This document shows, piece after piece, positions 1 to 24,639 of a stretch of DNA of 32,000 bases. Each line of letters opens with the position of its first letter. The first letter of the stretch is position 1. Location of the stretch: assembly GCA_016699205.1 (NCBI GenBank), contig CP064964.1, forward strand, positions 660,001-692,000. Direction: 5' to 3'. The notes beneath the pieces were generated by a model that was not told where the DNA came from, did no database searches, and worked only from the letters and a program-made list of their open reading frames with translations. This stretch comes from Candidatus Saccharimonadota bacterium (GTDB lineage Bacteria > Patescibacteriota > Patescibacteriia > 2-12-FULL-60-25). Made by a program: the position numbers and the translations under genes.

Positions 1-2519
1 CAGGCCTCGTCAATTCCAATCTCATCCCAGCCGCTGATCTTGCGTTCTCGCTTGGAAACGCTACCAATCGCTGGAATGCGAATCTTGGGAACGTGACGAG
101 TACTTCGGTCACGACCACCAATCTCTTTGCGACCAATGCCTTCGTCGATACCCTCGGCGTCACCACCTTCAGCGCCTCTTCGGGCACGATCACGAACTTC
201 CTGTTTGCCAATGCCACGGGTACCAATCTCTTTGTCACGAACTTCAATGCCGGTACTGGATCGATCAACAATTTCACCAGCAACTCTTCGACGATTACGA
301 ACCTCTTCTCGCCCGCGGCCACGTTCACGTCTTCCTCGATCGTGAACCTCACCGCCACGACCGCGACCATCACGAACTTGGTCCTTGGTTCACCGCTCAA
401 TCTCACCAATATCACCTGGGTGAATGCGACGGGTACCAATACGACTTCAACGAATCTCTTTGCCACCACCTTCGGCTTCACGAATGCCACGGGCGACTCG
501 CTCACCTCGAACATCGCCACCATCAACACCCTCACCTCGGTGAATGGTTCGATTACGACGCTCACTTCCACTTCCGGCACCATCGCCACCTTCAACTTTG
601 AGAATGCCACCGGTTCCTCCCTCTACGCCTCTACGATCCAGGCGACGACGGTGTCTTCGACGGCCGTGTTCGTCAACGGCGTTGCGGTGTGTCTCGCTTC
701 CGGCACCAACTGCCCGACAGGAACCACGCCAAATCTCCAGACCGTCACGAATGCCGGCAATACGACGACGAATGCCATCCAGTTTGCGGGCGGTACTTCC
801 ACGGCCGACTTTGTCTTCAATACCTCGGCCACGGTCAACGGTATCTTCACGGCCAACGGTCAGAGCAATCTCCAGAACGTTCTGTTTACGAATGCGACGG
901 GCATCCTTGTTCGTCTCCTCCTTACGGCCACCAACGGCACCATCGATACCTTGGTCTCGACCAATGGCACGATCACTTCCTTGTCGGCAGTCTCCGTCAC
1001 GACCACGAACCTGCTCGCTGCCTCCACCACGGTCACGGGCACGCTCACGGCAAACAATGCGACGGCGACCACACTGCAAGCCAATATCGCCACCTTCGCT
1101 ACGGCCACTGTTTCAGGCCAGGCTATCTGTCTCTCCAATGGCGTTGGCTGTCCTTCGACTTCGGCTGAAGCCGACACCCTCGCCTCGGTGACGAACCGTG
1201 GAGCCTTTGCGACTTCAAGCGTCACCTTGTTTGGCGGCCTCACGGTTTCTGACCTCACGGCCACGGGTACCACTTCTCTCCAGAACACGACCATCAGCAA
1301 TGGCACAACCACCAACTTCGCGGTCACAGGCCTCGTCAATTCCAATCTCATCCCAGCCGCTGATCTTGCGTTCTCGCTTGGAAACGCTACCAATCGCTGG
1401 AATGCGAATCTTGGGAACGTGACGAGTACTTCGGTCACGACCACCAATCTCTTTGCGACCAATGCCTTCGTCGATACCCTTGGCGTCACCACCTTCAGCG
1501 CCTCTTCCGGCACGATCACGAACTTCCTGTTTGCCAATGCCACGGGTACCAATCTCTTTGTCACGAACTTCAATGCCGGTACTGGATCGATCAACAATTT
1601 CACCAGCAACTCTTCGACGATTACGAACCTCTTCTCGCCCGCGGCCACGTTCACGTCTTCCTCGATCGTGAACCTCACCGCCACGACCGCGACCATCACG
1701 AACTTGGTCCTTGGTTCACCGCTCAATCTCACCAATATCACCTGGGTGAATGCGACGGGTACCAATACGACTTCAACGAATCTCTTTGCCACCACCTTCG
1801 GCTTCACGAATGCCACGGGCGACTCGCTCACCTCGAACATCGCCACCATCAACACCCTCACCTCGGTGAATGGTTCGATTACGACGCTCACTTCCACTTC
1901 CGGCACCATCGCCACCTTCAACTTTGAGAATGCCACCGGTTCCTCCCTCTACGCCAACACGATCCAGGCGACGACGGTGTCTTCGACGGCCGTGTTCGTC
2001 AACGGCGTTGCTGTGTGTCTCGCTTCCGGCACCAACTGTCCGACAGGAACCACGCCAAATCTCCAGACCGTGACGAATGCCGGCAATACGACGACGCGTG
2101 CCATCCAGTTTGCTGGCGGTACTTCCACGGCGGACTTTGTCTTCAATACCTCGGCCACGGTCAACGGTATCTTCACGGCCAACGGTCAGAGCAATCTCCA
2201 GAACGTTCTGTTTACGAATGCGACGGGTCGTCCCTGTTCGTCTCCCTCCTTACGGCCACCAACGGCACCATCGATACCTTGGTCTCGACCAATGGCACGA
2301 TCACTTCCTTGTCGGCAGTCTCCGTCACGACCACGAACCTGCTCGCTGCCTCCACCACGGTCACGGGCACGCTCACGGCAAACAATGCGACGGCGACCAC
2401 ACTGCAAGCCAATATCGCCACCTTCGCTACGGCCACTGTTTCAGGCCAGGCTATCTGTCTCTCCAATGGCGTTGGCTGTCCTTCGACTTCGGCTGAAGCC
2501 GACACCCTCGCCTCGGTGA
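1..2519 (+). CDS. Gene 1 (giant repetitive secreted fibre/adhesin-like protein), ORF fragment 1 of 6; the 5' end lies upstream of the window
   Basis: Frame 0 is open from nt 3. Nt 3-92 translate to GLVNSNLIPAADLAFSLGNATNRWNANLGN, the peptide that precedes VTSTSVTTTNLF in every later repeat unit, so the GTG at 93 in the track is not a real start. After about 2228 the frame-0 translation becomes Pro/Arg/Ser-rich nonsense (GRPCSSPSLRPP...). The family sequence (GSSLFVSLLTATNGTIDTL...) continues in frame 2. Confidence 0.85.
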   Translation, partial: GLVNSNLIPAADLAFSLGNATNRWNANLGNVTSTSVTTTNLFATNAFVDTLGVTTFSASSGTITNFLFANATGTNLFVTNFNAGTGSINNFTSNSSTITNLFSPAATFTSSSIVNLTATTATITNLVLGSPLNLTNITWVNATGTNTTSTNLFATTFGFTNATGDSLTSNIATINTLTSVNGSITTLTSTSGTIATFNFENATGSSLYASTIQATTVSSTAVFVNGVAVCLASGTNCPTGTTPNLQTVTNAGNTTTNAIQFAGGTSTADFVFNTSATVNGIFTANGQSNLQNVLFTNATGILVRLLLTATNGTIDTLVSTNGTITSLSAVSVTTTNLLAASTTVTGTLTANNATATTLQANIATFATATVSGQAICLSNGVGCPSTSAEADTLASVTNRGAFATSSVTLFGGLTVSDLTATGTTSLQNTTISNGTTTNFAVTGLVNSNLIPAADLAFSLGNATNRWNANLGNVTSTSVTTTNLFATNAFVDTLGVTTFSASSGTITNFLFANATGTNLFVTNFNAGTGSINNFTSNSSTITNLFSPAATFTSSSIVNLTATTATITNLVLGSPLNLTNITWVNATGTNTTSTNLFATTFGFTNATGDSLTSNIATINTLTSVNGSITTLTSTSGTIATFNFENATGSSLYANTIQATTVSSTAVFVNGVAVCLASGTNCPTGTTPNLQTVTNAGNTTTRAIQFAGGTSTADFVFNTSATVNGIFTANGQSNLQNVLFTNATGRPCSSPSLRPPTAPSIPWSRPMARSLPCRQSPSRPRTCSLPPPRSRARSRQTMRRRPHCKPISPPSLRPLFQARLSVSPMALAVLRLRLKPTPSPR

Positions 2520-4525
2520 CGAACCGTGGAGCCTTTGCGACTTCAAGCGTCACCTTGTTTGGCGGCCTCACGGTTTCTGACCTCACGGCCACGGGTACCA
2601 CTTCTCTCCAGAACACGACCATCAGCAATGGCACAACCACCAACTTCGCGGTTACGGGTGCCGTCAATTCCAATCTCATCCCAGCCGCTGATCTTGCGTT
2701 CTCGCTTGGAAACGCCACCAATCGCTGGAATGCGAATCTTGGGAACGTGACTTCGACTTCGGTCACGACCACCAATCTCTTTGCGACCAATGCCTTCGTC
2801 GATACCCTTGGCGTCACCACCTTCAGCGCCTCTTCCGGCACGATCACGAACTTCCTGTTTGCCAATGCCACGGGTACCAATCTCTTTGTCACGAACTTCA
2901 ATGCCGGTACTGGATCGATCAACAATTTCACCAGCAACTCTTCGACGATTACGAACCTCTTCTCGCCCGCGGCCACGTTCACGTCTTCCTCGATCGTGAA
3001 CCTCACCGCCACGACCGCGACCATCACGAACTTGGTCCTTGGTTCACCGCTCAATCTCACCAATATCACCTGGGTGAATGCGACGGGTACCAATACGACT
3101 TCAACGAATCTCTTTGCCACCACCTTCGGCTTCACGAATGCCACGGGCGACTCGCTCACCTCGAACATCGCCACCATCAACACCCTCACCTCGGTGAATG
3201 GTTCGATTACGACGCTCACTTCCACTTCCGGCACCATCGCCACCTTCAACTTTGAGAATGCCACCGGTTCCTCCCTCTACGCCAACACGATCCAGGCGAC
3301 GACGGTGTCTTCGACGGCCGTGTTCGTCAACGGCGTTGCTGTGTGTCTCGCTTCCGGCACCAACTGTCCGACAGGAACCACGCCAAATCTCCAGACCGTC
3401 ACGAATGCCGGCAATACGACGACGCGTGCCATCCAGTTTGCTGGCGGTACTTCCACGGCCGACTTTGTCTTCAATACCTCGGCCACGGTCAACGGTATCT
3501 TCACGGCCAACGGTCAGAGCAATCTCCAGAACGTTCTGTTTACGAATGCGACGGGCAATTCCTTGTTCGTCTCCCTCCTTACGGCCACCAACGGCACCAT
3601 CGATACCTTGGTCTCGACCAATGGCACGATCACTTCCTTGTCGGCAGTCTCCGTCACGACCACGAACCTGCTCGCTGCCTCCACCACGGTCACGGGCACG
3701 CTCACGGCAAACAATGCGACGGCGACCACACTGCAAGCCAATATCGCCACCTTCGCTACGGCCACTGTTTCAGGCCAGGCTATCTGTCTCTCCAATGGCG
3801 TTGGCTGTCCTTCGACTTCGGCTGAAGCCGACACCCTCGCCTCGGTGACGAACCGTGGAGCCTTTGCGACTTCAAGCGTCACCTTGTTTGGCGGCCTCAC
3901 GGTTTCTGACCTCACGGCCACGGGTACCACTTCTCTCCAGAACACGACCATCAGCAATGGCACCACGACCAACTTTGCCGTCACAGGCCTCGTCAATTCC
4001 AATCTCATCCCAGCCGCTGATCTTGCGTTCTCGCTTGGAAACGCTACCAATCGCTGGAATGCGAATCTTGGGAACGTGACGAGTACTTCGGTCACGACCA
4101 CCAATCTCTTTGCGACCAATGCCTTCGTCGATACCCTCGGCGTCACCACCTTCAGCGCCTCTTCGGGCACGATCACGAACTTCCTGTTTGCCAATGCCAC
4201 GGGTACCAATCTCTTTGTCACGAACTTCAATGCCGGTACTGGATCGATCAACAATTTCACCAGCAACTCTTCGACGATTACGAACCTCTTCTCGCCCGCG
4301 GCCACGTTCACGTCTTCCTCGATCGTGAACCTCACCGCCACGACCGCGACCATCACGAACTTGGTCCTTGGTTCACCGCTCAATCTCACCAATATCACCT
4401 GGGTGAATGCGACGGGTACCAATACGACTTCAACGAATCTCTTTGCCACCACCTTCGGCTTCACGAATGCCACGGGCGACTCGCTCACCTCGAACATCGC
4501 CACCATCAACACCTCACCTCGGTGA
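2015..4525 (+). CDS. Gene 1, ORF fragment 2 of 6 (meaningful coding about 2228-4513)
   Basis: Frame 2. The first 71 or so aa of the track ORF (MSRFRHQLSDRNH...) are out-of-frame shadow. From SSLFVSLLTATNG onward the translation matches the repeat-unit peptide. The ORF ends ...SNIATINTSPR-stop because one C is missing: the other units read acaccctcacc, whereas 4509-4518 reads acacctcacc. Confidence 0.85.
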   Translation: MSRFRHQLSDRNHAKSPDRDECRQYDDACHPVCWRYFHGGLCLQYLGHGQRYLHGQRSEQSPERSVYECDGSSLFVSLLTATNGTIDTLVSTNGTITSLSAVSVTTTNLLAASTTVTGTLTANNATATTLQANIATFATATVSGQAICLSNGVGCPSTSAEADTLASVTNRGAFATSSVTLFGGLTVSDLTATGTTSLQNTTISNGTTTNFAVTGAVNSNLIPAADLAFSLGNATNRWNANLGNVTSTSVTTTNLFATNAFVDTLGVTTFSASSGTITNFLFANATGTNLFVTNFNAGTGSINNFTSNSSTITNLFSPAATFTSSSIVNLTATTATITNLVLGSPLNLTNITWVNATGTNTTSTNLFATTFGFTNATGDSLTSNIATINTLTSVNGSITTLTSTSGTIATFNFENATGSSLYANTIQATTVSSTAVFVNGVAVCLASGTNCPTGTTPNLQTVTNAGNTTTRAIQFAGGTSTADFVFNTSATVNGIFTANGQSNLQNVLFTNATGNSLFVSLLTATNGTIDTLVSTNGTITSLSAVSVTTTNLLAASTTVTGTLTANNATATTLQANIATFATATVSGQAICLSNGVGCPSTSAEADTLASVTNRGAFATSSVTLFGGLTVSDLTATGTTSLQNTTISNGTTTNFAVTGLVNSNLIPAADLAFSLGNATNRWNANLGNVTSTSVTTTNLFATNAFVDTLGVTTFSASSGTITNFLFANATGTNLFVTNFNAGTGSINNFTSNSSTITNLFSPAATFTSSSIVNLTATTATITNLVLGSPLNLTNITWVNATGTNTTSTNLFATTFGFTNATGDSLTSNIATINTSPR

Positions 4526-7500
4526 ATGGTTCGATTACGACGCTCACTTCCACTTCCGGCACCATCGCCACCTTCAACTTTGAGAATGCCACCGGTTCCT
4601 CCCTCTACGCCAACACGATCCAGGCGACGACGGTGTCTTCGACGGCCGTGTTCGTCAACGGCGTTGCGGTGTGTCTCGCTTCCGGCACCAACTGTCCGAC
4701 AGGAACCACGCCAAATCTCCAGACCGTGACGAATGCCGGCAATACGACGACGCGTGCCATCCAGTTTGCTGGCGGTACTTCCACGGCGGACTTTGTCTTC
4801 AATACCTCGGCCACGGTCAACGGTATCTTCACGGCCAACGGTCAGAGCAATCTCCAGAACGTTTCGTTCTTGAATGCCACTGGTTCGTCCCTCTTCGTCT
4901 CCCTCCTTACGGCCACCAACGGCACCATCGATACCTTGGTCTCGACCAATGGCACGATCACTTCCTTGTCGGCAGTCTCCGTCACGACCACGAACCTGCT
5001 CGCTGCCTCCACCACGGTCACGGGCACGCTCACGGCAAACAATGCGACGGCGACCACACTGCAAGCCAATATCGCCACCTTTGCCACGGCCACTGTCTCA
5101 GGCCAGGCTATCTGTCTCTCCAATGGCGTTGGCTGTCCTTCGACTTCGGCTGAAGCCGACACCCTCGCCTCGGTGACCAACCGTGGAGCCTTTGCGACTT
5201 CAAGCGTCACCCTGTTTGGCGGCCTCACCACTTCCGACCTCACGGCCACGGGTACCACTTCTCTCCAGAACACGACGATCACCAATGGCACCACGACCAA
5301 CTTTGCCGTCACAGGCCTCGTCAATTCCAACCTCATCCCAGCCGCTGATCTTGCGTTCTCGCTTGGAAACGCCACCAATCGCTGGAATGCGAATCTTGGG
5401 AACGTGACTTCGACTTCGGTCACGACCACCAATCTCTTTGCGACCAATGCCTTCGTCGATACCCTCGGCGTTACCACCTTCAGCGCCTCTTCCGGCACGA
5501 TCACGAACTTCCTGTTTGCCAATGCCACGGGTACCAATCTCTTTGTCACGAACTTCAATGCCGGTACTGGATCGATCAACAATTTCACCAGCAACTCTTC
5601 GACGATTACGAACCTCTTCTCGCCCGCGGCCACGTTCACGTCTTCCTCGATCGTGAACCTCACCGCCACGACCGCGACCATCACGAACTTGGTCCTTGGT
5701 TCACCGCTCAATCTCACCAATATCACCTGGGTGAATGCGACGGGTACCAATACGACTTCAACGAATCTCTTTGCCACCACCTTCGGCTTCACGAATGCCA
5801 CGGGCGACTCGCTCACCTCGAACATCGCCACCATCAACACCCTCACCTCGGTGAATGGTTCGATTACGACGCTCACTTCCACTTCCGGCACCATCGCCAC
5901 CTTCAACTTTGAGAATGCCACCGGTTCCTCCCTCTACGCCTCTACGATCCAGGCGACGACGGTGTCTTCGACGGCCGTGTTCGTCAACGGCGTTGCGGTG
6001 TGTCTCGCTTCCGGCACCAACTGTCCGACAGGAACCACGCCAAATCTCCAGACCGTGACGAATGCCGGCAATACGACGACGCGTGCCATCCAGTTTGCTG
6101 GCGGTACTTCCACGGCGGACTTTGTCTTCAATACCTCGGCCACGGTCAACGGTATCTTCACGGCCAACGGTCAGAGCAATCTCCAGAACGTTCTGTTTAC
6201 GAATGCGACGGGCAATTCCTTGTTCGTCTCCCTCCTTACGGCCACCAACGGCACCATCGATACCTTGGTCTCGACCAATGGCACGATTACTTCCTTGTCG
6301 GCAGTCTCCGTCACGACCACCAACCTTTTGGCCGCTTCCACCACGGTCACGGGCACGCTCACGGCAAACAATGCGACGGCGACCACGCTTCAGGCCAACA
6401 TCGCCACCTTCGCTACGGCCACTGTCTCAGGCCAGGCTATCTGTCTCTCCAATGGCGTTGGCTGTCCTTCGACTTCGGCTGAAGCCGACACCCTCGCCTC
6501 GGTGACCAACCGTGGAGCCTTTGCGACTTCAAGCGTCACCCTGTTTGGCGGCCTCACCACTTCCGACCTCACGGCCACGGGTACCACTTCTCTCCAGAAC
6601 ACGACGATCACCAATGGCACCACCACCAACTTCGCCGTCACAGGCCTCGTCAATTCCAACCTCATCCCAGCCGCTGATCTTGCGTTCTCGCTTGGAAACG
6701 CTACCAATCGCTGGAATGCGAATCTTGGGAACGTGACGAGTACTTCGGTCACGACCACCAATCTCTTTGCGACCAATGCCTTCGTCGATACCCTTGGCGT
6801 CACCACCTTCAGCGCCTCTTCCGGCACGATCACGAACTTCCTGTTTGCCAATGCCACGGGTACCAATCTCTTTGTCACGAACTTCAATGCCGGTACTGGA
6901 TCGATCAACAATTTCACCAGCAACTCTTCGACGATTACGAACCTCTTCTCGCCCGCGGCCACGTTCACGTCTTCCTCGATCGTGAACCTCACCGCCACGA
7001 CCGCGACCATCACGAACTTGGTCCTTGGTTCACCGCTCAATCTCACCAATATCACCTGGGTGAATGCGACGGGTACCAATACGACTTCAACGAATCTCTT
7101 TGCCACCACCTTCGGCTTTACCAATGCGACGGGCGACTCGCTCACTTCGAACATCGCCACCATCAACACCCTCACTTCGGTGAATGGTTCGATCACGACG
7201 CTCACTTCCACTTCCGGCACCATCGCCACCTTCAACTTTGAGAATGCCACCGGTTCCTCCCTCTACGCCAACACGATCCAGGCGACGACGGTGTCTTCGA
7301 CGGCCGTGTTCGTCAACGGCGTTGCCGTGTGTCTCGCCTCCGGCACCAACTGTCCGGCTGCTTCCGGCCTCGACACCCTCCAGTCGGTCACCGCACGCGG
7401 CAGCTTCACGACCACCACCGCCCAGTTCTTTGGCGGCTTTGTGGCAGCTTCCTCTTCTGTCACAGGAACCTTTGCTGTTGCCGGAACAAGCACCCTTTTG

Positions 7501-10500
7501 CGCGATGTCTATGTCGGTACCTCTACCTACGATGTTTTCCTCAACTCCGACTTTGTCCTCGATGGCAATGATCTCTTTGCCGCTGACAATATTGGTTCGG
7601 TTTCCTCGATCTTCTCCAATGGCATGCTCGTTACCGGAGAAACCGGTCCTACCTTGTTTGGAGACGGATTCATCAATCAGACCGATGGTGCACTCGTTAT
7701 TTCGGCCAACAGCTCATTCTTGACCCAACCATCCATCAGCATCATTGCCGGTGATTTTACATCCGGTCTTGCCGGTGACGTGAATATCCTGGCTGGCAAC
7801 GGTCTTGGCGGAAACCCGGCTGGAAATATCTACCTCACGCCAGGCGACTCCCTTGGACAGCCGGGACATCTCTATCTCAATGCTGCAGGCACTTCCAATC
7901 AACCGCAATTCCGCTTTGAATCCATCGGTGGAGGCATGGTGAGCTTAGAGGCTCCGAATACCGCTAACACCGAGAGCTTTGTCCTTCCATTTGCGGATGG
8001 AGCTTCTTCTACTGTCATTGGTACCAATGGCACTGGAATTCTTACCTTTGTCTCTGTTTGTTTGACGGATGGTACCAACTGTCCGGCTTCTTCTGGCCTC
8101 GACACCCTCCAGTCGGTCACTGCGCGCGGCAGCTTCACGACCACCACTGCCCAGTTCTTTGGCGGGTTTGTGGCCGCAAGTTCGAGTGTGACGGGGACGT
8201 TTGTCGTGGTTGGCTCTACCTCGCTCCGCAATGTCGACTTCACAACGGCTACCGGTACCTCGGTCACCACGACTAATCTCTTTGCGACTTTGGGTAGCTT
8301 TACGACTGCTACCGCAACTAATGCGAATATCAACATTCTTACTGCCGCAACCGGTACTGTCTCTAGCCTCAACTTCCGCAATGCGACTGGTACGTTCTTG
8401 TTTGCCTCAACAGGTACGTTCGCAACGGTCACTTCATCGTTCTTGTATGCCAATACGGCTAACTTTGCGACGGCTACCGTTTCCGGTGTCGGTATCTGTT
8501 TGAGCAATGGCGTTGGTTGTCCGGCTGCTGGTTCGGTAGCAGTGTCTTTGGACTCGGCTTATGATGGTCCGTCGGGTAGTGGTTCTGGTCGTACCATCTT
8601 TGCAGATAATGGTGCAGTTAACATTATTGTTCCAACAACGGGTACTTCACCCGGCCTTGTGATTAATCATCAGGAGGATTCTAGTTTTGTGAATGCGGTT
8701 GAAATCTACTCAACTGGTACAAATCTCGCTCTTTTTGTTCAACGTAATAACAGTAACTTTGATACGAATTCTGCACGTTTTATTAACACGAATCCAGGCG
8801 GTTCCTCTATTACGGTCGAATCTAGCGATACATATCTTTCTTTCTTGGCAAACCGCACACTTTCTGGAGGTACAAGTGTCATCTCTTCACTGTCATCAAC
8901 TGGTGTTGCTCAAGGACTTAATTTTAATGCGCGTTCATTTGATTTCCGTACAGCACCTGACGGAATTACACAGTTTAGCGCGTTGTCCATGCTTCAGAGC
9001 GGAGCTACCACATTTAATACCTCAAGTACTGAGAGCGCTACGGCTTGGAAAGTTAATAATTTTGGGTCCGGTCCATCGCTTGAGGTATTTGATGGTGGTA
9101 ATGCGCTTTCGGATAATACGTCCTTCATGATTGATGATAATGGAGACGTCGGAATTGGTTTAAACCCGGGTGAAGTCAAGTTAAGCGTCCTTTCGAGCCG
9201 CGCTACAACTACAGCTGTTGCTCGATTTAGCAGCACAAGTTCTGCTGATTTTGATCTTTTTGTTGCAACCGGTACTCCTGAAGGTAATACATCCGGTTCT
9301 CCTGGTGACTTGGCTGTAGATACCAGAGATGGTCGACTATTTGTTAAAACAACAGGCGGCTCAACGGGATGGCTTTCAGTCTGTCTCTCCGACGGCACCA
9401 ACTGTCCGGCTGCTTCCGGCCTCGACACCCTCCAGTCGGTCACCGCACGCGGCAGCTTCACGACCACCACCGCCCAGTTCTTTGGCGGCTTTGTGGCAGC
9501 TTCCTCTTCTGTCACAGGAACCTTTGCTGTTGCCGGAACAAGCACCCTTTTGCGCGATGTCTATGTCGGTACCTCTACCTACAGCGTTACCCTCAACTCC
9601 GACTTTGTCCTCGATGGCAATGATCTCTTTGCCGCTGACAATATTGGTTCGGTTTCCTCGATCTTCTCCAATGGCATGCTCGTTACCGGAGAAACCGGTC
9701 CTACCTTGTTTGGAGACGGATTCATCAATCAGACCGATGGTGCACTCGTTATTTCGGCCAACAGCTCATTCTTGACCCAACCATCCATCAGCATCATTGC
9801 CGGTGATTTTACATCCGGTCTTGCCGGTGACGTGAATATCCTGGCTGGCAACGGTCTTGGCGGAAACCCGGCTGGAAATATCTACCTCACGCCAGGCGAC
9901 TCCCTTGGACAGCCGGGACATCTCTATCTCAATGCTGCAGGCACTTCCAATCAACCCCAATTCCGCTTTGAATCCATCGGTGGAGGCATGGTGAGCTTAG
10001 AGGCTCCGAATACCGCTAACACCGAGAGCTTTGTCCTTCCATTTGCGGATGGAGCTTCTTCTACTGTCATTGGTACCAATGGCACTGGAATTCTTACCTT
10101 TGTCTCTGTTTGTTTGACGGATGGTACCAACTGTCCGGCTTCTTCTGGTCTCGACACCCTTCAGTCCGTTACGGCTCGAGGCTCCTTCACGACCACCACC
10201 GCCCAGTTCTTTGGCGGGTTTGTGGCAGCTTCATCCTCGGTCACAGGTACCTTTGTCGTCGTCGGTTCTACCTCGCTCCGCAATGTCGACTTCACAACGG
10301 CTACCGGTACTTCGGTCACCACCACCAACCTCTTTGCGACGTTGGGTAGCTTTACGACCGCTACGGCAACCAATGCGAATATCAACATTCTCTCTGCGGC
10401 AACCGGTACGGTTTCTAATCTCAACTTCCGCAATGCGACTGGTACGTTCTTGTTTGCCTCAACAGGTACATTCGCAACAGTCACTTCATCGTTCTTGTAT

Positions 10501-12885
10501 GCCAATACGGCTAACTTTGCCACAGCTACCGTTTCCGGTGTCGGTATCTGTTTGAGCAATGGCGTTGGCTGTCCGGCAAGCGGTTCCTCTAATGACACGC
10601 TGTTAACGATTACGAATCGCGGTGCGATCGCCACGAGCACGTTTACACTTTACGGCGGTTTTGTCGCGGCAAGCTCGAGTGTGACGGGCACTTTGAATGT
10701 CGTGGGTAGTTTGAATGTGTTTGGAGGAACTTCTAGCCGTATCGCTTTTGAAGCGCCCCTCGAACAGTACGTGACGGCTACTACCCCGTTTACAACCATG
10801 GCAACTACGTACGTTGGTAATGATCCGAGAGTTGTTGTCGTTCAGGGTAACTATGCATATATCATGAGCAACACTCCACAGCTGCATATTGTGGATGTCT
10901 CTAATCCGAGCGCACCAATCCTGATGTCGACCACGACACTTTCTGGTGGTAGTTCTTGGAGTGATTTGGTTGTTTCCGGTGATTATGTCTACACGGTTGA
11001 TTTTGGAGGCACCATGAACGTTGTTGACGTTTCAAATCCACGAAGACCGTTGGTTACGGATACGCTTTCCTTAAGTGGCCCTGGCGAGATTGAAGTTGCA
11101 GGGAGATATGCTTATGTCGCTGAATGGAGCAGCAGCCGCATTGCCGTTATCGATATCTCGGATCCTTATAATATTTCCGTTCTTTCACAGACAGCGTCTG
11201 ACCTCGAGGCTTGGGGGATGGAGGTTCAGGGCGATTATGTGTATACCTCTGCTTACGGTAGCGGGCCGTTCAATGTCTATAACGTATCAGATCCTAATAC
11301 GGTACGCCGCGTTGGTACCACCGGTGCACTCTCTAGCTTAAGTAATGAGGTGCCGCTTCGTGTGCAGGGAAGCTATGCGTATCTTGGAAGTGCCGCCTCT
11401 AACTATTTCTACGTAATCGATATCTCTAATGCGACAGGACCAACCGTGATTTTTCAAGGTGCGGTCACGAGCACGTCGATATCTAATTATAAGTACTTTT
11501 CCGTCAACGGAGATTACGTGTATGTCTCTGAGGATGGCACTGGAGAAATGCATGTTATCGATATTTCCAACCCTCGTTACCCACGATACGTAAAGACCCA
11601 CACCTATTCTCCAACGACTAACTTCGGTATTGATGTTGCTGGTCGATATGCTTACGTCTTACATCAGGGCGCCAGTGACTCGATGTCGATCATTAAGGTT
11701 GGTGGTTCAGAAACAAATGCTTTGCTCGCGCATAGCTTTGAGGCAGGCACGTTGAATGTTCTCGGAATTGCTGATTTTCAGAATTTTGTCTCTATCCGTA
11801 CAGGTCTTTCTGTCGGTTCGGCTGGCATCAATAGTTTTGGTTCGTTAAATGTTTACGCAACAAATACAACGAGTACGTTTTATGGCGCGGTCTCTACGAG
11901 TCGTTTGATGGTCGGAGGGTATGCTGTTTGTCTTTCTAACGGTACCAACTGTCCAGCTGCATCTGGTCTCGACACCCTTCAGTCTGTTACGGCTCGCGGC
12001 AGCTTTACGACTACCACCGCCCAGTTCTTTGGCGGTTTTGTGGCCGCATCCTCTTCCGTTACAGGTACGTTCCGCGTCATTGGTTCTTCGATAGTGAACG
12101 GTACGTCGACTGTTACGGGTTCGTCATCGTTTAACGGTGTCGACTTTGTCCGGGCTACCGGTACCTCGGTCACCACCACCAACCTCTTTGCGACGAATGC
12201 TTTGTTTACCGGTGCCACAGGAACAACCGTTACTTCTAGCCAGGTCTTCTGGAATAATGCCACGGGCGCAAGACTCTTTGTTTATGGAGCAACGTTTAAT
12301 GATGCGACGTCAAGCAACTTCTTTGTCAATACCATGCTCGGATTTACGAGTGCGACCGGTGTTTCTTTGAACGTAAATGGCTTTACAGCTGCAACGGCAT
12401 CCATTGCTGGTCTCAACTTCCGTAATGCTACGGGTGTAAATCTTTTTACGACCAATGTCACAACGACCAATTTGTCGGTTCTTGGAACATTCTCCGCGAC
12501 AAATCTTGCATGGACAAATGCAACCGGTACGTTTTTGACTGTCACAACGAGTACCCAGACCTTCTCGAGTATTCGATACGTTTCTTCATCTCAGCTAAAT
12601 GTAAATACAGCGGTTCTCATGCGCATGGGTCAGGCGTCATCCGTCGGTTCACCTACCGAGGTGTTTGTTTCCGGCCGCTACGCGTATGTCAATTCAGCTG
12701 CTTTTGCTGACATCAACATCTACGATATCTCTGATCCGAATGCACCAACCTCGGTTTCATCGATTCAGATGCCTGGCGGAAACTCGGGTAATGCCTATGT
12801 TGTTGGAGATTATCTGTACACGGGCGATCAAGGCACGCAGCTTCGTATTTACGATATTAGCAATCGAAGAGATCCTCGGTTGTGA
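4522..12885 (+). CDS. Gene 1, ORF fragment 3 of 6 (2787 aa in track): end of the tandem array, two 1.18-kb modules, a knob-like module and LVIVD propellers 1 and 2 (part)
   Basis: Frame 1. The track start GTG at 4522 is the internal Val of ...TLTSVNGSITT... as found in all sister units. This is a long uninterrupted ORF with family repeats throughout. It terminates DISNRRDPRL-stop in the middle of an LVIVD blade, which continues in frame 0. Confidence 0.9.
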   Translation: MNGSITTLTSTSGTIATFNFENATGSSLYANTIQATTVSSTAVFVNGVAVCLASGTNCPTGTTPNLQTVTNAGNTTTRAIQFAGGTSTADFVFNTSATVNGIFTANGQSNLQNVSFLNATGSSLFVSLLTATNGTIDTLVSTNGTITSLSAVSVTTTNLLAASTTVTGTLTANNATATTLQANIATFATATVSGQAICLSNGVGCPSTSAEADTLASVTNRGAFATSSVTLFGGLTTSDLTATGTTSLQNTTITNGTTTNFAVTGLVNSNLIPAADLAFSLGNATNRWNANLGNVTSTSVTTTNLFATNAFVDTLGVTTFSASSGTITNFLFANATGTNLFVTNFNAGTGSINNFTSNSSTITNLFSPAATFTSSSIVNLTATTATITNLVLGSPLNLTNITWVNATGTNTTSTNLFATTFGFTNATGDSLTSNIATINTLTSVNGSITTLTSTSGTIATFNFENATGSSLYASTIQATTVSSTAVFVNGVAVCLASGTNCPTGTTPNLQTVTNAGNTTTRAIQFAGGTSTADFVFNTSATVNGIFTANGQSNLQNVLFTNATGNSLFVSLLTATNGTIDTLVSTNGTITSLSAVSVTTTNLLAASTTVTGTLTANNATATTLQANIATFATATVSGQAICLSNGVGCPSTSAEADTLASVTNRGAFATSSVTLFGGLTTSDLTATGTTSLQNTTITNGTTTNFAVTGLVNSNLIPAADLAFSLGNATNRWNANLGNVTSTSVTTTNLFATNAFVDTLGVTTFSASSGTITNFLFANATGTNLFVTNFNAGTGSINNFTSNSSTITNLFSPAATFTSSSIVNLTATTATITNLVLGSPLNLTNITWVNATGTNTTSTNLFATTFGFTNATGDSLTSNIATINTLTSVNGSITTLTSTSGTIATFNFENATGSSLYANTIQATTVSSTAVFVNGVAVCLASGTNCPAASGLDTLQSVTARGSFTTTTAQFFGGFVAASSSVTGTFAVAGTSTLLRDVYVGTSTYDVFLNSDFVLDGNDLFAADNIGSVSSIFSNGMLVTGETGPTLFGDGFINQTDGALVISANSSFLTQPSISIIAGDFTSGLAGDVNILAGNGLGGNPAGNIYLTPGDSLGQPGHLYLNAAGTSNQPQFRFESIGGGMVSLEAPNTANTESFVLPFADGASSTVIGTNGTGILTFVSVCLTDGTNCPASSGLDTLQSVTARGSFTTTTAQFFGGFVAASSSVTGTFVVVGSTSLRNVDFTTATGTSVTTTNLFATLGSFTTATATNANINILTAATGTVSSLNFRNATGTFLFASTGTFATVTSSFLYANTANFATATVSGVGICLSNGVGCPAAGSVAVSLDSAYDGPSGSGSGRTIFADNGAVNIIVPTTGTSPGLVINHQEDSSFVNAVEIYSTGTNLALFVQRNNSNFDTNSARFINTNPGGSSITVESSDTYLSFLANRTLSGGTSVISSLSSTGVAQGLNFNARSFDFRTAPDGITQFSALSMLQSGATTFNTSSTESATAWKVNNFGSGPSLEVFDGGNALSDNTSFMIDDNGDVGIGLNPGEVKLSVLSSRATTTAVARFSSTSSADFDLFVATGTPEGNTSGSPGDLAVDTRDGRLFVKTTGGSTGWLSVCLSDGTNCPAASGLDTLQSVTARGSFTTTTAQFFGGFVAASSSVTGTFAVAGTSTLLRDVYVGTSTYSVTLNSDFVLDGNDLFAADNIGSVSSIFSNGMLVTGETGPTLFGDGFINQTDGALVISANSSFLTQPSISIIAGDFTSGLAGDVNILAGNGLGGNPAGNIYLTPGDSLGQPGHLYLNAAGTSNQPQFRFESIGGGMVSLEAPNTANTESFVLPFADGASSTVIGTNGTGILTFVSVCLTDGTNCPASSGLDTLQSVTARGSFTTTTAQFFGGFVAASSSVTGTFVVVGSTSLRNVDFTTATGTSVTTTNLFATLGSFTTATATNANINILSAATGTVSNLNFRNATGTFLFASTGTFATVTSSFLYANTANFATATVSGVGICLSNGVGCPASGSSNDTLLTITNRGAIATSTFTLYGGFVAASSSVTGTLNVVGSLNVFGGTSSRIAFEAPLEQYVTATTPFTTMATTYVGNDPRVVVVQGNYAYIMSNTPQLHIVDVSNPSAPILMSTTTLSGGSSWSDLVVSGDYVYTVDFGGTMNVVDVSNPRRPLVTDTLSLSGPGEIEVAGRYAYVAEWSSSRIAVIDISDPYNISVLSQTASDLEAWGMEVQGDYVYTSAYGSGPFNVYNVSDPNTVRRVGTTGALSSLSNEVPLRVQGSYAYLGSAASNYFYVIDISNATGPTVIFQGAVTSTSISNYKYFSVNGDYVYVSEDGTGEMHVIDISNPRYPRYVKTHTYSPTTNFGIDVAGRYAYVLHQGASDSMSIIKVGGSETNALLAHSFEAGTLNVLGIADFQNFVSIRTGLSVGSAGINSFGSLNVYATNTTSTFYGAVSTSRLMVGGYAVCLSNGTNCPAASGLDTLQSVTARGSFTTTTAQFFGGFVAASSSVTGTFRVIGSSIVNGTSTVTGSSSFNGVDFVRATGTSVTTTNLFATNALFTGATGTTVTSSQVFWNNATGARLFVYGATFNDATSSNFFVNTMLGFTSATGVSLNVNGFTAATASIAGLNFRNATGVNLFTTNVTTTNLSVLGTFSATNLAWTNATGTFLTVTTSTQTFSSIRYVSSSQLNVNTAVLMRMGQASSVGSPTEVFVSGRYAYVNSAAFADINIYDISDPNAPTSVSSIQMPGGNSGNAYVVGDYLYTGDQGTQLRIYDISNRRDPRL
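7342..8525 (+). repeat. Dispersed direct repeat, copy A (1184 bp) of an intragenic module
   Basis: It matches 9394-10577 at a constant offset of 2052 (for example, the minus-strand shadow ORFs 7714-7908 and 9766-9960). The match is near-identical up to about 8094, with only a handful of differences seen, and is clearly more diverged from 8095 to 8525. Confidence 0.9.
9394..10577 (+). repeat. Dispersed direct repeat, copy B
   Basis: See copy A. Both ends of the similarity fall in Cys-loop codons (ggcaccaactgtccgg at the 5' end, gg(t/c)tgtccggc at the 3' end). Confidence 0.9.
10756..11712 (+). other. LVIVD-type 7-blade beta-propeller 1 (gene 1)
   Basis: It has seven blades with the core [VI]-x-G-x-Y-[AVL]-Y-[VIT]...[IV]-[IV]-D-[IV]-S-[ND]-P-x-x-P: VQGNYAYIM, VSGDYVYTV, VAGRYAYVA, VQGDYVYTS, VQGSYAYLG, VNGDYVYVS, VAGRYAYVL. 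The pattern matches the LVIVD repeat family of bacterial/archaeal surface proteins (Pfam LVIVD; recalled, not searched). Confidence 0.75.
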
Positions 12886-13472
12886 GCCAGCTTACCGGAC
12901 CTACTTGCGAAGATTGTATTGTTTCAGGCCGTTATCTTTATAGCGTAGATACAAACTCCTTTGACATTGTTGACATAACAAATGCAACGGCTCCTCGAAG
13001 AGTATTCTCAACTACCACTTCGAACGGTGAGAAAGTGAGAGTCCAGGGTAGCTATGCCTATGCGATTCTGGGTGGAAATAGTGTCCGCGTTTTTGATGTA
13101 ACAAACGCTACCAGCCCGATACAGATTGCTTCCATTGCCCTTACTTCGCCGTCAGCATTGGCTGTTTCGGGGCGGTTCCTCTATGTAAATAACAGTACCG
13201 CTGTTCGTGTGTACGATATCGCTGATCCGAATAATCCGACATTATTGGGCTCAGTTGCTATCGGCAATACTCCGGGCGAGATTGATGTAGCAGGAAAATA
13301 TCTTTATATAACGCATAATGATTTGTCTGTAGTTGATGTTTCGAGTTCGACGAATCCACGCATCGTGATTCAGGATTTATCGCTCGGTAGTAACGGTATC
13401 GATGTGTATGGCCGCTATGGTGTCGTTGGTATTAGTGGAGGTATTCAAATAATTGATTTTGGAGGTCTTGAA
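12640..13472 (+). other. LVIVD-type 7-blade propeller 2 (gene 1; spans the frame break at 12879)
   Basis: Blades: VSGRYAYVN, VVGDYLYTG, VSGRYLYSV, VQGSYAYAI, VSGRFLYVN, VAGKYLYIT, VYGRYGVVG. Each is followed by x-[IV]-x-D-[IV]-[ST]-N/D-x-x-x-P. Confidence 0.75.
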
Positions 13473-14099
13473 ACGCATGCGGCACGCATTGGGGCCCTGG
13501 AAGTCGGTTCAATTACGGGTTGGAACGATGCTGATTTTGGAGGCACGCTTCGTGTAGGGACATCGCTTCAAGTTGGTCGCCAGGGCATTTTTACATTAGG
13601 TTCGCTTGCTGTAGGTGCGACAAATACCACATCAACTATTGAGTACGCGGTCTCATCCACGCGCGGTGAGTTTTCGGGAGGATTGAGTGTTGGCGGTGTG
13701 TCTGTCTGTTTATCAAATGGAACAAACTGCCCTGCTGGCAGCGGAACAGACACCCTCCAGTCGGTCACCGCACGCGGCAGCTTCACGACCACCACCGCCC
13801 AGTTCTTTGGCGGCTTTGTGGCAGCTTCCTCTTCTGTCACAGGAACCTTTGCTGTTGCCGGAACAAGCACCTTTTGCGCGATGTCTATGTCGGTACCTCT
13901 ACCTACGATGTTTTCCTCAACTCCGACTTTGTCCTCGATGGCAATGATCTCTTTGCCGCTGACAATATTGGTTCGGTTTCTTCGATCTTCTCCAATGGCA
14001 TGCTTGTTACCGGAGAAACCGGTCCTACCTTGTTTGGAGACGGATTCATCAATCAGACCGATGGTGCACTCGTTATTTCGGCCAACAGCTCATTCTTGA
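12882..14099 (+). CDS. Gene 1, ORF fragment 4 of 6 (meaningful coding about 12879-13870): rest of LVIVD propeller 2, linker and junction box
   Basis: Frame 0. (V)VSQLTGPTCEDCIVSGRYLYSVDTNSFDIVDITNATAP completes the blade interrupted at 12885. After 13870 the frame-0 product turns into nonsense (FCAMSMSVPLPT...). The family sequence LLRDVYVGTSTYDVF continues in frame 2. Confidence 0.85.
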   Translation: MSQLTGPTCEDCIVSGRYLYSVDTNSFDIVDITNATAPRRVFSTTTSNGEKVRVQGSYAYAILGGNSVRVFDVTNATSPIQIASIALTSPSALAVSGRFLYVNNSTAVRVYDIADPNNPTLLGSVAIGNTPGEIDVAGKYLYITHNDLSVVDVSSSTNPRIVIQDLSLGSNGIDVYGRYGVVGISGGIQIIDFGGLETHAARIGALEVGSITGWNDADFGGTLRVGTSLQVGRQGIFTLGSLAVGATNTTSTIEYAVSSTRGEFSGGLSVGGVSVCLSNGTNCPAGSGTDTLQSVTARGSFTTTTAQFFGGFVAASSSVTGTFAVAGTSTFCAMSMSVPLPTMFSSTPTLSSMAMISLPLTILVRFLRSSPMACLLPEKPVLPCLETDSSIRPMVHSLFRPTAHS

Positions 14100-24555: not shown

Positions 24556-24639
24556 ATGCCCCGTTCCCTTCGTCCTTTTTTGATCGCTTTCACCCTCCTT
24601 CTTGGTGGGTTGTTTCTGTCTTCCTCGGCTGTCTTGGCT
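24556..24639 (+). other. Predicted Sec-type signal peptide of gene 2 (28 aa; likely cleavage after VLA)
   Basis: MPRSLRPFLIAFTLLLGGLFLSSSAVLA|APQ. It has a basic n-region (R3, R6), a hydrophobic core and small residues at -3/-1 (A-V-L-A). The cleavage site is judged by eye only. Confidence 0.7.

Follow-up and report, generated by a model that had tools for sequence, protein, structure and literature searches.

Mosaic evolution of fibers and adhesins is already known, and the locus described here is a variant on it. Conserved DNA motifs at the flanks of tailspike receptor-binding domains are known from PMC10408124, which also lists earlier work from 1998 (ref. 61 therein), and short conserved stretches bordering dissimilar modules have been proposed as recombination hotspots that make mosaic fibers. 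The window, by which we mean the whole stretch of 32,000 nt analyzed here, is similar to these phage mosaics in that conserved short borders coincide with the edges of exchanged segments. It differs from them in that the exchanges are among paralogous modules, within and between genes of one small bacterial genome, and not between phage genomes, and in that protein constraint accounts for most of the conservation of the stretch.

The T4-like cyanophage fibers (e.g., S-MbCM7 / ACG-2014h) are, like the window proteins, modular and rich in Thr, Ser, Asn, and Gly. The cyanophage fiber YP_009008310.1 carries [ES]ADTLxx[VI]TxRGxTT at successive module starts (TAESDTLATVAARGATTT, TAEADTLDTITARGSTTN, and FTEADTLDSVTGRGATTT), as the window proteins do. 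However, the cyanophage copies have no cysteines, and GYLT[AS] stands ahead of them in place of the loop with two cysteines (C-x6-C) found in the window. The window proteins also differ from these fibers in being chromosomal, in their predicted signal peptide, in being 3 to 10 times longer, and in containing LVIVD propellers.

Two further systems share single aspects with the locus. The adhesin of Mobiluncus mulieris is likewise a very large extracellular protein with repeated modules that each have an intramolecular covalent bond of their own, and the bond types of giant Gram-positive adhesins include disulfides (PMC10619420). Its modules are, however, Ig-like domains, and the bonds, of the ester, isopeptide, or thioester type, are internal to each domain (PMC10619420), whereas the putative bond in the window would close a tiny loop at the module end, and the modules are fiber-like and of unknown fold. 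In polymorphic toxin systems, a conserved peptide motif is located ahead of exchangeable C-terminal cassettes, where variable modules recombine (PMC3482391), as in the window, but the window has no toxin or immunity genes, and its swaps are internal and multiple rather than restricted to the C-terminal tip.

Results

The window encodes two giant proteins of the same architecture (Table 1). Gene 1 is not one clean open reading frame (ORF), and five single-base frame corrections, near positions 2229, 4513, 12877, 13872, and 14231, were used to stitch it. The repeats disrupt long-read assemblies and gene calling, and the frame errors split gene 1 into several ORFs. The N terminus of gene 2 is signal-peptide-like (MPRSLRPFLIAFTLLLGGLFLSSSAVLAAPQ), and such N termini support the prediction that the proteins are exported. 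The only Pfam domains in the two genes are LVIVD, YNCE-like, and Beta_propel, and in each of the three long ORFs LVIVD (PF08309) exceeded its gathering score (E values of 5e-38 to 1e-127). The LVIVD matches sit in propeller modules between the junctions, as we call a C-x6-C loop followed by a linker and a box, and cover neither loop nor box. Gene 1 opens with a tandem array in which each unit has two such junctions and which terminates within the loop at 7327-7356. The units are 97 to 99% identical inside the genome, compared to 85 to 93% identity to the units of a related genome.

A regular-expression search of the three plus frames for [VI]CL-x-[SDN]-[GN]-x-x-C[PSV] gave exactly the 28 matches counted in the initial annotation, of which gene 1 has 22 and gene 2 the other 6, each starting with its V/I codon at the first position of a loop or junction in Table 1. 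All 28 are in the coding frame path, and the minus frames contained none. No match appeared in 1,000 residue shuffles. The loops and boxes are real, conserved, and far above chance. The spacing C-x6-C was observed 28 times compared to 0.39 expected, with no more than 3 in any single shuffle, and the motif pairs hold 56 of the 63 cysteines (44/48 in gene 1 and 12/15 in gene 2), in agreement with the claim that nearly all cysteines are paired in this way. The census of boxes gave 19 copies of [DE]TL..[VI][TS].RG and 5 PNLQTVTNAGN variants. The alpha box consists of 33 residues (DTLQSVTARGSFTTTTAQFFGGFVAASSSVTGT), the first being D or E and the rest being identical in 9 copies. The positions first given for the boxes need adjustment, however, since they are those of the second Cys, approximately 21 nt ahead of the D of DTLQ.

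Table 1. Genes, repeats, modules, and junctions in the window
Feature	Position	Strand	Description
Gene 1	1..24261	+	Giant secreted (predicted) fiber/beta-propeller protein, at least 8087 aa stitched; N terminus outside the window
Gene 2	24556..32000	+	Architecture as gene 1; continues past the window end
Tandem array	1..7356	+	Roughly 5.5 units, each 1326-1329 nt long (443 aa), 97-99% mutual identity
Junction	687..827	+	Loop VCLASGTNCP, linker, gamma-type box PNLQTVTNAGNTTT
Gamma-type junction, equivalent copies	2013-2153, 3341-3481, 4669-4809, 5998-6138	+	
Junction	1125..1271	+	Loop ICLSNGVGCP, linker STSAEA, beta-type box DTLASVTNRGAFATSSVTLFGG
Beta-type array junction, equivalent copies	2453-2599, 3782-3928, 5110-5256, 6439-6585	+	
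Junction	7327..7470	+	Last array loop VCLASGTNCP, linker AASGL, alpha box DTLQSVTARGSFTTTTAQFFGGFVAASSSVTGT
Repeat copy A	7342..8525	+	Module A1 and short fiber module A2; both edges within Cys loops
Module A1	7372-8097	+	Knob-like, 242 aa
Module A2	8101-8523	+	Short fiber
Junction	8056..8199	+	Loop VCLTDGTNCP, linker ASSGL, alpha box
Loop without box	8494..8523	+	ICLSNGVGCP, then SVAVSLDSAYDG module
Junction	9379..9522	+	Loop VCLSDGTNCP, alpha box; 5' edge of copy B (9393/9394)
Repeat copy B	9394..10577	+	
Junction	10108..10251	+	Loop VCLTDGTNCP, alpha box
Junction	10546..10692	+	Loop ICLSNGVGCP, linker ASGSSN, box DTLLTITNRG
Junction	11926..12069	+	Loop VCLSNGTNCP, alpha box; after LVIVD propeller
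Junction	13704..13847	+	Loop VCLSNGTNCP, alpha box
Copy C of module A1	13749..14472	+	99.4% identity to 7372-8097; from box start to linker past next loop
Loop without box	14431..14460	+	VCLTDGTNCP, then delta module ADLNWTFNLAGDFVRNAT
Junction	15922..16065	+	Loop VCLSNGTNCP, alpha box
Junction	17260..17409	+	Loop VCLEDGTNCP, linker GGSSGGS, diverged alpha-like box
Loop	18574..18603	+	VCLADGTSCS, then delta-type module
Junction, gene 2	25303..25452	+	Loop ICLSNGQFCS, beta-type box
Junction, gene 2	25672..25821	+	Loop VCLSDGTFCP, box; inside AlphaFold2-modeled 25642-26136 (165 aa)
Junction, gene 2	25969..26115	+	Loop ICLSNGVGCV, beta-type box
Loop, gene 2	26311..26340	+	VCLQDNTNCP, then delta-like module
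Junction, gene 2	26932..27078	+	Loop ICLFNGVGCP, alpha box
Alpha box without Cys loop	27694..27792	+	Cys-less variant GWVGIVTLDMLASGL ahead
Copy D of module A1	27694-28411	+	Begins with alpha box; 67-93% identity to A
Loop, gene 2	28381..28410	+	VCLTDGTNCP, then delta module

The loop and box recur in a family of 232 representative protein clusters at an E value of ≤1e-3, with up to 30 copies per protein. Among the ten best hits, which were looked up, five have an organism name, all of them Patescibacteria/Uhrbacteria, and these are annotated as hypothetical proteins except for P0011, a "YVTN family beta-propeller protein." Column conservation in 262 instances from outside the window is high both in the cap and loop (C, 99%; L, 96%; G, 97%; C, 99%) and in the box (L, 93%; G, 99%; T, 92%; GG, 98 and 97%). 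C-x6-C is by far the most common Cys spacing across the family, both cysteines are present in 412 instances, neither is present in 4, and only one is present in 1, a frameshifted fragment. These counts support the view that the cysteines behave as pairs. Family-wide, 65% of the loops have a box after them and 67% of the boxes have a loop before them, with a linker of 4 to 8 residues between the two; the elements are separable, and the earlier description of loop and box as one "junction box" does not hold.

Searches with the tandem unit and junction-containing modules against Pfam, NCBIfam, and PHROGs found no family for the loop or box, the sole matches being choice_anch_B, far under the cutoff, and phrog_16267, of unknown function, for the tandem unit. 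Searches of PDB sequences with the profile and with stretches of 703 and 1,315 aa produced no credible match, Rfam yielded no family, module A1 retrieved only 4 hits in a word-index protein search, and a scan of metagenomes for the SVAVSLDSAYDG module was negative. No Pfam hit to the domains of trimeric autotransporter adhesins (YadA-type anchor, head, stalk, and neck) was obtained in the 8,606 aa scanned, and the host, a CPR bacterium, probably has no outer membrane. N-x-S/T sequons were not enriched over composition, and repeat periodicity gave weak signals only, at lags of about 5 and 10. Readings of the cysteine motif as a lipobox or a metal-binding site were ruled out on context. In the literature that we searched, neither the motif nor giant proteins of Uhrbacteria were described.

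The box is linked to phage tail fibers by several matches of different strengths. The PHROGs family phrog_9729 ("tail fiber protein") matched weakly in 3 of 17 loop-plus-box segments (best E value, 0.0055) and gave no hit from whole modules of 410 to 600 aa. YP_009008310.1, the annotated tail fiber of Synechococcus phage S-MbCM7, is phrog_9729 (E value, 7e-122), and a box HMM built from the window matches all three motif copies in it; the module-start motif [ES]ADTLxxVTxRGxTT occurs 19 times in the window and 3 times in this protein. Alignment of the box with the phage set by hhalign gave a probability of 96% and an E value of 4.6e-9 over 38 columns, a score that is partly circular since the phage set was selected by motif. 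Box-like motifs without cysteines were present on 16 IMG/VR contigs, where, unlike in the window, V-x-G-x-x-V-L-T-G-E precedes the box and there is no C-x6-C loop. A tblastn search of INPHARED phages with a window junction and one IMG/VR fiber gave no match. The genomic context is not that of a phage: the window, part of a bacterial contig of 1.08 Mb, contains only the two giant genes, which have a signal-peptide-like start, and neither the called neighbor genes of L001-L003 nor four upstream ORFs of L001 that were run against Pfam had a phage-related annotation.

AlphaFold2 modeled a loop-box-module-loop-box segment (25642-26136; 28-sequence alignment) as an extended monomer with almost no secondary structure (pLDDT, 70; pTM, 0.31), the linker being the part of lowest confidence. 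A Foldseek search of this model against the PDB returned 0 matches, and the model of the A1 knob (18-sequence alignment; pLDDT, 51) was unusable. The low-confidence linker agrees with the separability of the elements. The models, being extended or poor, provide no direct support for a disulfide.

Phage tail fibers are trimeric, and collagen III and the FACIT collagens have interchain cystine knots at the ends of their triple helices. By analogy, the window proteins could be trimeric fibers in which the cysteines bond neighboring chains and a ring of three disulfides staples the trimer in register at each module end. The strict pairing of the cysteines and the similarity of the box to phage tail fibers would agree with such an arrangement, as would an extended monomer model of moderate confidence, a typical result for chains that need to oligomerize in order to fold. 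The likeness to collagen knots lies in two closely spaced cysteines that border a fibrous segment, but the window proteins lack Gly-X-Y repeats, their cysteines are spaced by six residues and not by zero to four, and the trimer is a candidate only. The six-residue spacing, the conserved Gly, and a small hairpin before the loop fit an intrachain loop equally well, and beta-propellers of 400 residues in the chain are awkward for a strict trimer. We regard bonds between chains as rather unlikely.

The four breakpoints reported in the initial annotation are correct to 1 to 2 nt. The tandem array ends at 7352-7356, the identity between copies A and B starts at 7341/9393 and ends at 8525/10577, and the near-identity of copies A, B, and C ends in the linker (8096-8097/10148-10149/14471-14472), while that of copy C to copy A begins exactly at the box start, at 13749. 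The junction at 7327-7470 is chimeric, being array-like up to 7352-7356 and copy B-like from 7341 on, and the joint between the array and copy A is a clean crossover in a 15-nt run (GGCACCAACTGTCCG) identical in both parents. Copy B is approximately 98% identical to copy A up to 10226 (8174 in A; high stringency) and approximately 94% identical at 10267-10577, and starting in the linker, at position 10148 (8097 in A), the differences are synonymous changes clustered in the alpha box. The cluster, between A2 and B2, is tight and has the look of a conversion patch derived from a different copy of the box. The A1 tracts have their 5' edges where the first, nucleotide-conserved half of the box begins, a region with identical runs of 20 to 44 nt. 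Altogether, the edges listed at junctions are 7341-7356, 7372/13749/27694, 8096-8097/10148/14472, 8525/10577, 10117, 10598, and 15941-15950.

The last three of these edges come from a comparison with L003, a paralogous gene in a related genome, and all fall in a loop or box. A tract of 99% identity starts at 10117, within a loop; identity to L003 stops at 10598, after the first 4 nt of the box DTLLTITNRG; and a shared tract of 94% identity ends at 15941-15950, within a loop. The neighboring gene P0152/P0151 has the same modules in another order and switches exactly at PASGSSN|DTLQ and CPASSG|VADLNW. Two JGI samples (L002 and L003) and, in the same genome, protein P0152 independently show the module order B2-A1-delta. 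The view of loops and boxes as module borders is borne out, since they are located where module types change, and swaps for unrelated modules, in the window and the L003 paralogue, have their edges within the loop or linker or in the opening codons of the box.

Not all edges behave in this way. The tracts of 100% identity between genes 1 and 2 have three edges (18788, 20180, and 21057) at 184 to 2,459 nt from the nearest loop, and the edges at 7643/27965 and 25507 are likewise off loops. The four breakpoints at loops are thus a selected subset, and the claimed clustering is true of these but not of other recent tract edges. Of 62 endpoint clusters, counted from endpoints that are not independent, 17 fall in junction zones compared to 7.7% expected (P = 3e-6), but when the endpoints are collapsed by hand into events, approximately 5 of 25 do so, and the enrichment is marginal (approximately 0.04 by hand calculation).

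At the nucleotide level, the codon identity of the alpha box is 55% compared to 33% expected as a raw contrast, an excess that shared ancestry alone might produce. The excess is moderate and confined to codons 1 to 23, with the second half of the box being near chance, and the codons of the loop vary freely at degenerate positions, without conservation beyond codon usage. Only the first 23 codons thus exceed what the protein constraint gives, and the conservation of the box acts mainly at the protein level. A PHI-like recombination test on the boxes gave a borderline P value of 0.054, or 0.23 with an eighth copy added. That the boxes are the homology substrate for module shuffling is plausible but unproven.

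Much of what is seen is also accounted for if selection favors breakpoints at domain borders. If breaks occur anywhere and only those that respect domain borders survive, the DNA of the box would have no role in the exchange. The free variation of the loop nucleotides, the near-chance codon identity in the second half of the alpha box, and the nonsignificant PHI-like test all fit this explanation, as do the tolerance of any linker of 4 to 8 residues and conversion tracts between homologous regions that end anywhere. It does not, however, account well for the clean crossover between the array and copy A in a run shared by both parents, for A1 5' edges at the nucleotide-conserved half of the box with its identical runs of 20 to 44 nt, or for the A2/B2 cluster that resembles a converted patch. 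We find selection without any role of the box DNA to be a real possibility, although on balance a doubtful one.

There are at least five assembly frame errors in the repeats, and fine-scale identity patterns may partly be consensus artifacts. In a stronger form, the near-identical tracts and sharp edges would themselves stem from misassembly or from short-read polishing across copies in a long-read metagenome assembly. Three of the five one-base frame errors are CCC→CC, the related contig from JGI likewise has a shifted frame and stops partway through the array, and tracts of 100% identity adjoin regions of 90%. However, the order B2-A1-delta was obtained independently in L002, L003, and P0152, every edge preserves the reading frame and falls at the one protein motif, and the motif family is present in 232 unrelated clusters, which makes this explanation very unlikely.

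The surface proteins of CPR bacteria are known targets of diversity-generating retroelements (DGRs), and it could be envisaged that the repeats are template/variable pairs of such an element or the ends of another mobile element. The window has no reverse transcriptase or transposase ORF but only the two giant genes, the box differences are synonymous third-position changes of all kinds and not adenine-specific mismatches, and no Rfam family was hit. Targeted diversification of this type is disfavored to the point of being negligible.

Discussion

We conclude that the feature is probably a conserved join of structural modules in giant secreted tail-fiber-like surface proteins of a Candidatus Uhrbacteria (Patescibacteria/CPR) bacterium and that most of the recent duplications and swaps of modules start or stop at such joins. 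The join has three separable parts. The first, V-x-G-x-x-V-C-L-x-[ND]-G-x-x-C-P, caps the C-terminal end of the module upstream, and its cysteines would be linked by a disulfide, making a closed extracellular loop of eight residues. The second is a short linker of variable length and composition, and the third is the N-terminal start of a fiber-type module, [DE]TLxxV[TS]xRGxxTT...GG, resembling the module-start motif of cyanophages. These elements are almost the only sequence common to otherwise unrelated modules (knobs, short fibers, and beta-propellers), and homology between paralogues therefore begins and ends there.

Unequal recombination and gene conversion among the copies have probably expanded a 443-residue unit into the tandem array, brought module A1 to three places in gene 1, with related copies in gene 2 and in the neighboring gene, and arranged the same modules differently from gene to gene. 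When an unrelated module takes the place of another, the edge of the exchange falls within the loop or linker or at the very start of the box. The short identical runs in loops and boxes (15 to 44 nt) may guide such exchanges, and selection would retain only in-frame joins at module borders. A bolder version, in which loop and box are, in Uhrbacteria and related CPR bacteria, a dedicated cassette-border system that reshuffles phage-derived fiber, knob, and propeller modules through short-homology recombination and the cysteines staple the module ends, possibly between chains, seems unlikely to us.

CPR bacteria, whose genomes are tiny, probably live attached to other cells. The window alone devotes at least 32 kb to two giant secreted fiber proteins, which may serve attachment, and together with P0152 and P0008, which have the same junctions, this comes to >4% of a 1.08-Mb genome. 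The loop and box form a previously undescribed family of 232 clusters without a Pfam, NCBIfam, or PDB relative and with a link to phage tail-fiber modules. The junctions offer a simple rule for dividing unannotated giant proteins into modules, and the motif may help to rejoin the fragments of giant genes broken by frame errors. If the junctions guide recombination, the locus would be a compact case of modular surface-protein diversification in an uncultured lineage, and if they are indeed a cassette-border system, the giant fiber genes would continually vary the specificity of attachment to the host, just as phages vary their tail fibers.

Results

Junctions between modules. The two giant genes of the window, a fibre/beta-propeller gene (gene 1) and a second gene of the same architecture (gene 2), carry module junctions made of a C-x6-C loop ([VI]CL-x-[SDN]-[GN]-x-x-C[PSV]), a spacer and a box ([DE]TL..[VI][TS].RG). 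The regular expression of the initial annotation returns exactly 28 loops, 22 in gene 1 and 6 in gene 2, within a few bases of where they had been placed, and all 28 lie in the coding frame path. No loop motif was found in the minus frames of the window or in 1000 residue shuffles, and C-x6-C was observed 28 times against 0.39 expected from such shuffles. Nearly all cysteines do lie in loop pairs (44 of 48 in gene 1 and 12 of 15 in gene 2). The box follows 19 loops or loop-less sites and the variant PNLQTVTNAGN five more; nine copies of the 33-residue alpha box, DTLQSVTARGSFTTTTAQFFGGFVAASSSVTGT, are identical except for D/E at residue 1.

Alignment A2, a profile built on 17 copies from the window, recovered a family of 232 proteins at E ≤ 1e-3 (114 of them at E ≤ 1e-10) among 1.84 billion representative protein sequences; the largest number of copies in a single protein is 30, in one of 6814 residues. 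Among the best 10 of the 232 matches, all five with an organism name are Patescibacteria/Uhrbacteria, and seven of the eight that are named are called "hypothetical protein," the other (P0011) being a "YVTN family beta-propeller protein." The motif also occurs in two further giant genes of the window's own genome, and no relatives of the junction were found in Pfam, NCBIfam or PDB. The consensus of 262 distinct non-window copies is V-x-G-x-x-V-C-L-x-[ND]-G-[TV]-[NG]-C-P, linker, [DP]-T-L-x-x-V-[TS]-x-x-G-x-x-x-T...G-G, with both loop cysteines 99% conserved, and six residues is by far the commonest Cys-to-Cys spacing in family proteins. Distinct family copies have both cysteines (412), neither (4) or one only (1, a frameshifted fragment); the four Cys-less copies are of the variant "GWVGIAT.D.L," which also precedes the box at 27694. 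This all-or-none pattern is the main argument that the two cysteines act as a pair, from which we infer, most simply, a disulfide; more tentatively, the bond would be intrachain and close an eight-residue loop.

Loop and box had been taken as a single "junction box," and the family counts separate them. A box lies within 16 residues of 65% of 440 family loops, the rest leading into other modules such as "DLNWTFNLAGDFVRNAT" or "LQAAYDG," and 67% of 439 family boxes have a loop upstream; the spacer from second Cys to box is 4 to 8 residues and variable in composition. An autonomous connector was not seen: the AlphaFold2 model of 25642-26136 (loop-box-module-loop-box, 28-sequence alignment) has no compact connector and is an extended chain almost without secondary structure (pLDDT 70, pTM 0.31), with no fold match in PDB. 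Its confidence is highest in the loops (75-84) and lowest in the spacers after them (below 56; residues 23-28 below 50). The model of the knob-like module A1 (pLDDT 51) was too poor for use. Given this separability, the variable spacer and the model confidences, our reading is that the upstream module ends in the loop, its C-terminal cap, that one common module type, the fibre type, begins at its N-terminus with the box, and that the true module border is the spacer between the two. "LQAAYDG"-type continuations after loops are present in other family members, and a scan of a JGI metagenome collection found nothing related to the module ("SVAVSLDSAYDGPSGSGSGRTIFADNGAV...") that follows the loop at 8494.

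Repeat edges. Edges were taken from a high-stringency self-comparison of the window and from comparison with contigs L001 and L003 of a related genome (Table). The four breakpoints first proposed are correct to 1-2 nt, and two of them, the array end and the A/B identity start, are one chimeric joint whose parents share the 15-nt run GGCACCAACTGTCCG. The tabulated edges from the array end down to the two tracts shared with the related genome's paralogous gene, P0151, all lie within a loop, a spacer or the opening codons of a box. Gene 1 has module A1 three times, at 99%; gene 2 has it in diverged form, and the neighbouring gene has a further copy, every one bounded by box and loop. In P0152 of the window's own genome and its related-genome counterpart P0151, window modules are reordered (A2-like, a short fibre module; A1; then delta, which follows some loops without a box, plus propeller), and at the protein level the switches fall exactly at "CPASGSSN|DTLQ" and "CPASSG|VADLNW."

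Edges and other features of the window
Feature	Position	Partner position	Observation
Gene 1 (+)	1..24261		frame path from upstream of base 1 to stop at ~24259
Gene 2 (+)	24556..32000		frame path from ~24556 past window end
Tandem array	1-7356		GC ~0.57, GC skew ~-0.25; downstream ~0.50, ~0
Array end	7352-7356
A/B identity	7341-8525	9393-10577	ends directly after Cys-Pro
A/C tract start	7372	13749	99.4%; exactly at box start
A/D tract start	7366	27688
A/B/C near-identity end	8096-8097	10148-10149; 14471-14472	in spacer
Tract shared with paralogous gene, related genome	10117-10598		99%; starts within loop, ends 4 nt into box
Tract shared with same paralogous gene	13749-15950		94%; starts at box, ends within loop
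Gene 1/gene 2 tract	18788-20180	28589-29981	100%; LVIVD-propeller part
Gene 1/gene 2 tract	21057-22193	30864-32000	100%; LVIVD-propeller part
Region between these tracts	20575-21057		~90%
Other edges	7643; 25507	27965 (of 7643)	off junctions
Module after loop at 8494	8521-9378
Gene 1 frame changes	near 2229, 4513 (4526 region), 12877, 13872, 14231
Propeller-blade repeats	14970-15557		four to five of 120 nt (40 aa)
Duplicated ~300-aa unit	~22500-23700		gene 1 C-terminus
36-nt repeat	24168-24252		gene 1 end
Intergenic region	24259-24555		hairpin, T run
Sigma-70-like site	24389-24417		the one in the intergenic region
Common head	24556-25507	L003 2998-3952; L001 5654 onward	gene 2; neighbouring gene; start of gene 1

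The proposal that edges are enriched at boxes holds in part. Junction zones make up 5.5% of the window (7.7% with padding) and take 17 of 62 endpoint clusters (binomial P = 3e-6), but the clusters are non-independent, since each repeat contributes both its partners and tandem equivalents count separately, and many array endpoints are only local mismatch patches; collapsed by hand, about 5 of some 25 events remain, a marginal excess (~0.04, likewise by hand). The edges of the 100%-identical gene 1/gene 2 tracts, which come from recent gene conversion or else from an artefact of polishing, lie 184 to 2459 nt from the nearest loop. A fair statement is that edges swapping one module type for an unrelated one are all at junctions and that conversion tracts homologous on both sides end anywhere. 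The array units share 97-99% identity within the window's genome versus 85-93% with those of the related genome, which indicates that the array was homogenised or recently expanded within each lineage.

Conservation of the junction DNA beyond the protein constraint is likewise mixed. All degenerate positions of the loop codons vary (six codons for Leu, four each for Gly, Thr and Pro), and only Cys is nearly fixed, as TGT, which these genes prefer in general. In the alpha box, identical residues use the same codon 55% of the time across six independent lineages, where codon usage predicts 33%; the excess is in codons 1-23 (~0.65 versus 0.37, hand calculation), and codons 24-33 are near chance (~0.33 versus 0.26). 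Since all 33 residues are identical, the main force is purifying selection at the protein level. Pairs of independent boxes share longest exact in-register runs of 6-44 nt (median, 17), in sub-blocks that differ from pair to pair, and a PHI-like test for a box mosaic was borderline (P = 0.054; 0.23 with an eighth copy). What separates short fibre modules A2 and B2 is a set of synonymous changes packed closely together within the box alone, which looks like a small conversion patch.

Reading frame and gene content. The + strand of the window is almost wholly coding by ORF analysis, but gene 1 is not one clean ORF, and its five frame changes break it in gene callers (P0010, 2787 aa; P0001, 405 aa; others). 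The protein is smooth across each change once one base is restored, and three of the five are CCC to CC inside otherwise near-identical repeat copies. They are probably uncorrected homopolymer errors of long-read assembly left in repeats; that the same changes mark a real pseudogene is the less probable reading. A similar frame problem is present in the related JGI contig. Stitched across these presumed errors, gene 1 encodes at least 8087 residues, and gene 2 encodes 2503 within the window; both proteins are Thr/Ser/Asn/Gly-rich with few charged residues. All Pfam matches (LVIVD, YNCE-like, Beta_propel) are to beta-propeller modules and fall in the C-terminal two thirds. The blade repeats are YNCE/YVTN-like ("NNVSKIDITTNTVVATTTVG..P..IAFDG.HMWV"), the duplicated C-terminal unit is without known family ("GIVS.NPGF.LG...ALTGRVPTK.S..NGP..IGD.LT.S"), and the 36-nt repeat encodes DPGTDPGSGSST.

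Gene 2 opens with a signal-peptide-like sequence, and so does the gene 1 orthologue of L001. With an N-terminal "INYQ[AS]RL..SG" domain this forms a common head, also found in family members P0006 and P0013, and the neighbouring-gene copy of the related genome (L003) is 96% identical in DNA to that of gene 2; it looks like a head common to the entire family, serving in export and anchoring. In the intergenic region a run of Ts follows a GC-rich hairpin (GCCTGCCC...GGGCAGGCTTTTT); the hairpin was found by eye and is outside the loop limit of the automated scan. The source contig is 1,082,254 bp, metagenome-assembled as "Candidatus Uhrbacteria bacterium." L001 (JGI 3300056825, 1,114,843-bp contig, positions 1-13053) ends within the same tandem array, as would fit a circular genome broken there during assembly, and gene order in the related genome suggests three adjacent giant genes spanning contig ends.

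Discussion

Three of the 17 window copies weakly matched phrog_9729, "tail fiber protein." An IMG/VR scan found the box in 16 viral contigs, some with the V-x-G-x-x-V element upstream and all 16 without the cysteines (e.g., "GLFVSGVPVLTGENNPAEADTLQSVTTRGNSTSTS"), and tblastn with one of them reached a protein of S-MbCM7 that is annotated as the tail fibre of this T4-like cyanophage and is a phrog_9729 member (E 7e-122). Successive modules of this fibre begin with the motif ("TAESDTLATVAARGATTT," "TAEADTLDTITARGSTTN," "FTEADTLDSVTGRGATTT"), and the window box HMM matches all three. Profile-profile comparison of window and phage copies gave 96% probability (E 4.6e-9, 38 box columns), a partly circular score since the phage set was itself found by means of the motif. 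Phage fibres and window proteins share the box at module heads, but the phage copies lack the C-x6-C cysteines; judged by these matches, the box would be phage-fibre-like, the bacterial form of the motif that starts phage tail-fibre modules, and the loop seems to have been added specifically in the Patescibacteria proteins.

Conserved border motifs that coincide with exchange points are also known from phage receptor-binding proteins, Tetart et al. 1998 reportedly being an example. In mosaic proteins of this kind, conserved motifs flanking variable modules coincide with exchange points (PMC10408124), a behaviour matched by the window's junctions and similar to that of repeat-rich bacterial adhesins. 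The window genes combine cap, spacer and module start with strict cysteine pairing, combinatorial module order and exchange edges at junctions. With moderate confidence, we propose that the junctions would be the sole homology between unlike modules, so that unlike neighbours could start or resolve ectopic recombination, or gene conversion, there, and, with similar confidence, that selection would retain only in-frame joins within the tolerant spacer. Homology guidance and selection both point to the junctions, and the present data fit either.

In conclusion, the novelty lies in the Cys-loop cap, in the family itself, which is unannotated and so far restricted to Patescibacteria, and in the scale of module reuse within a 1.08-Mb genome. 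The product might be a fibre that folds only on oligomerisation and, again tentatively, may help this bacterium, with its small genome, to attach to other cells.
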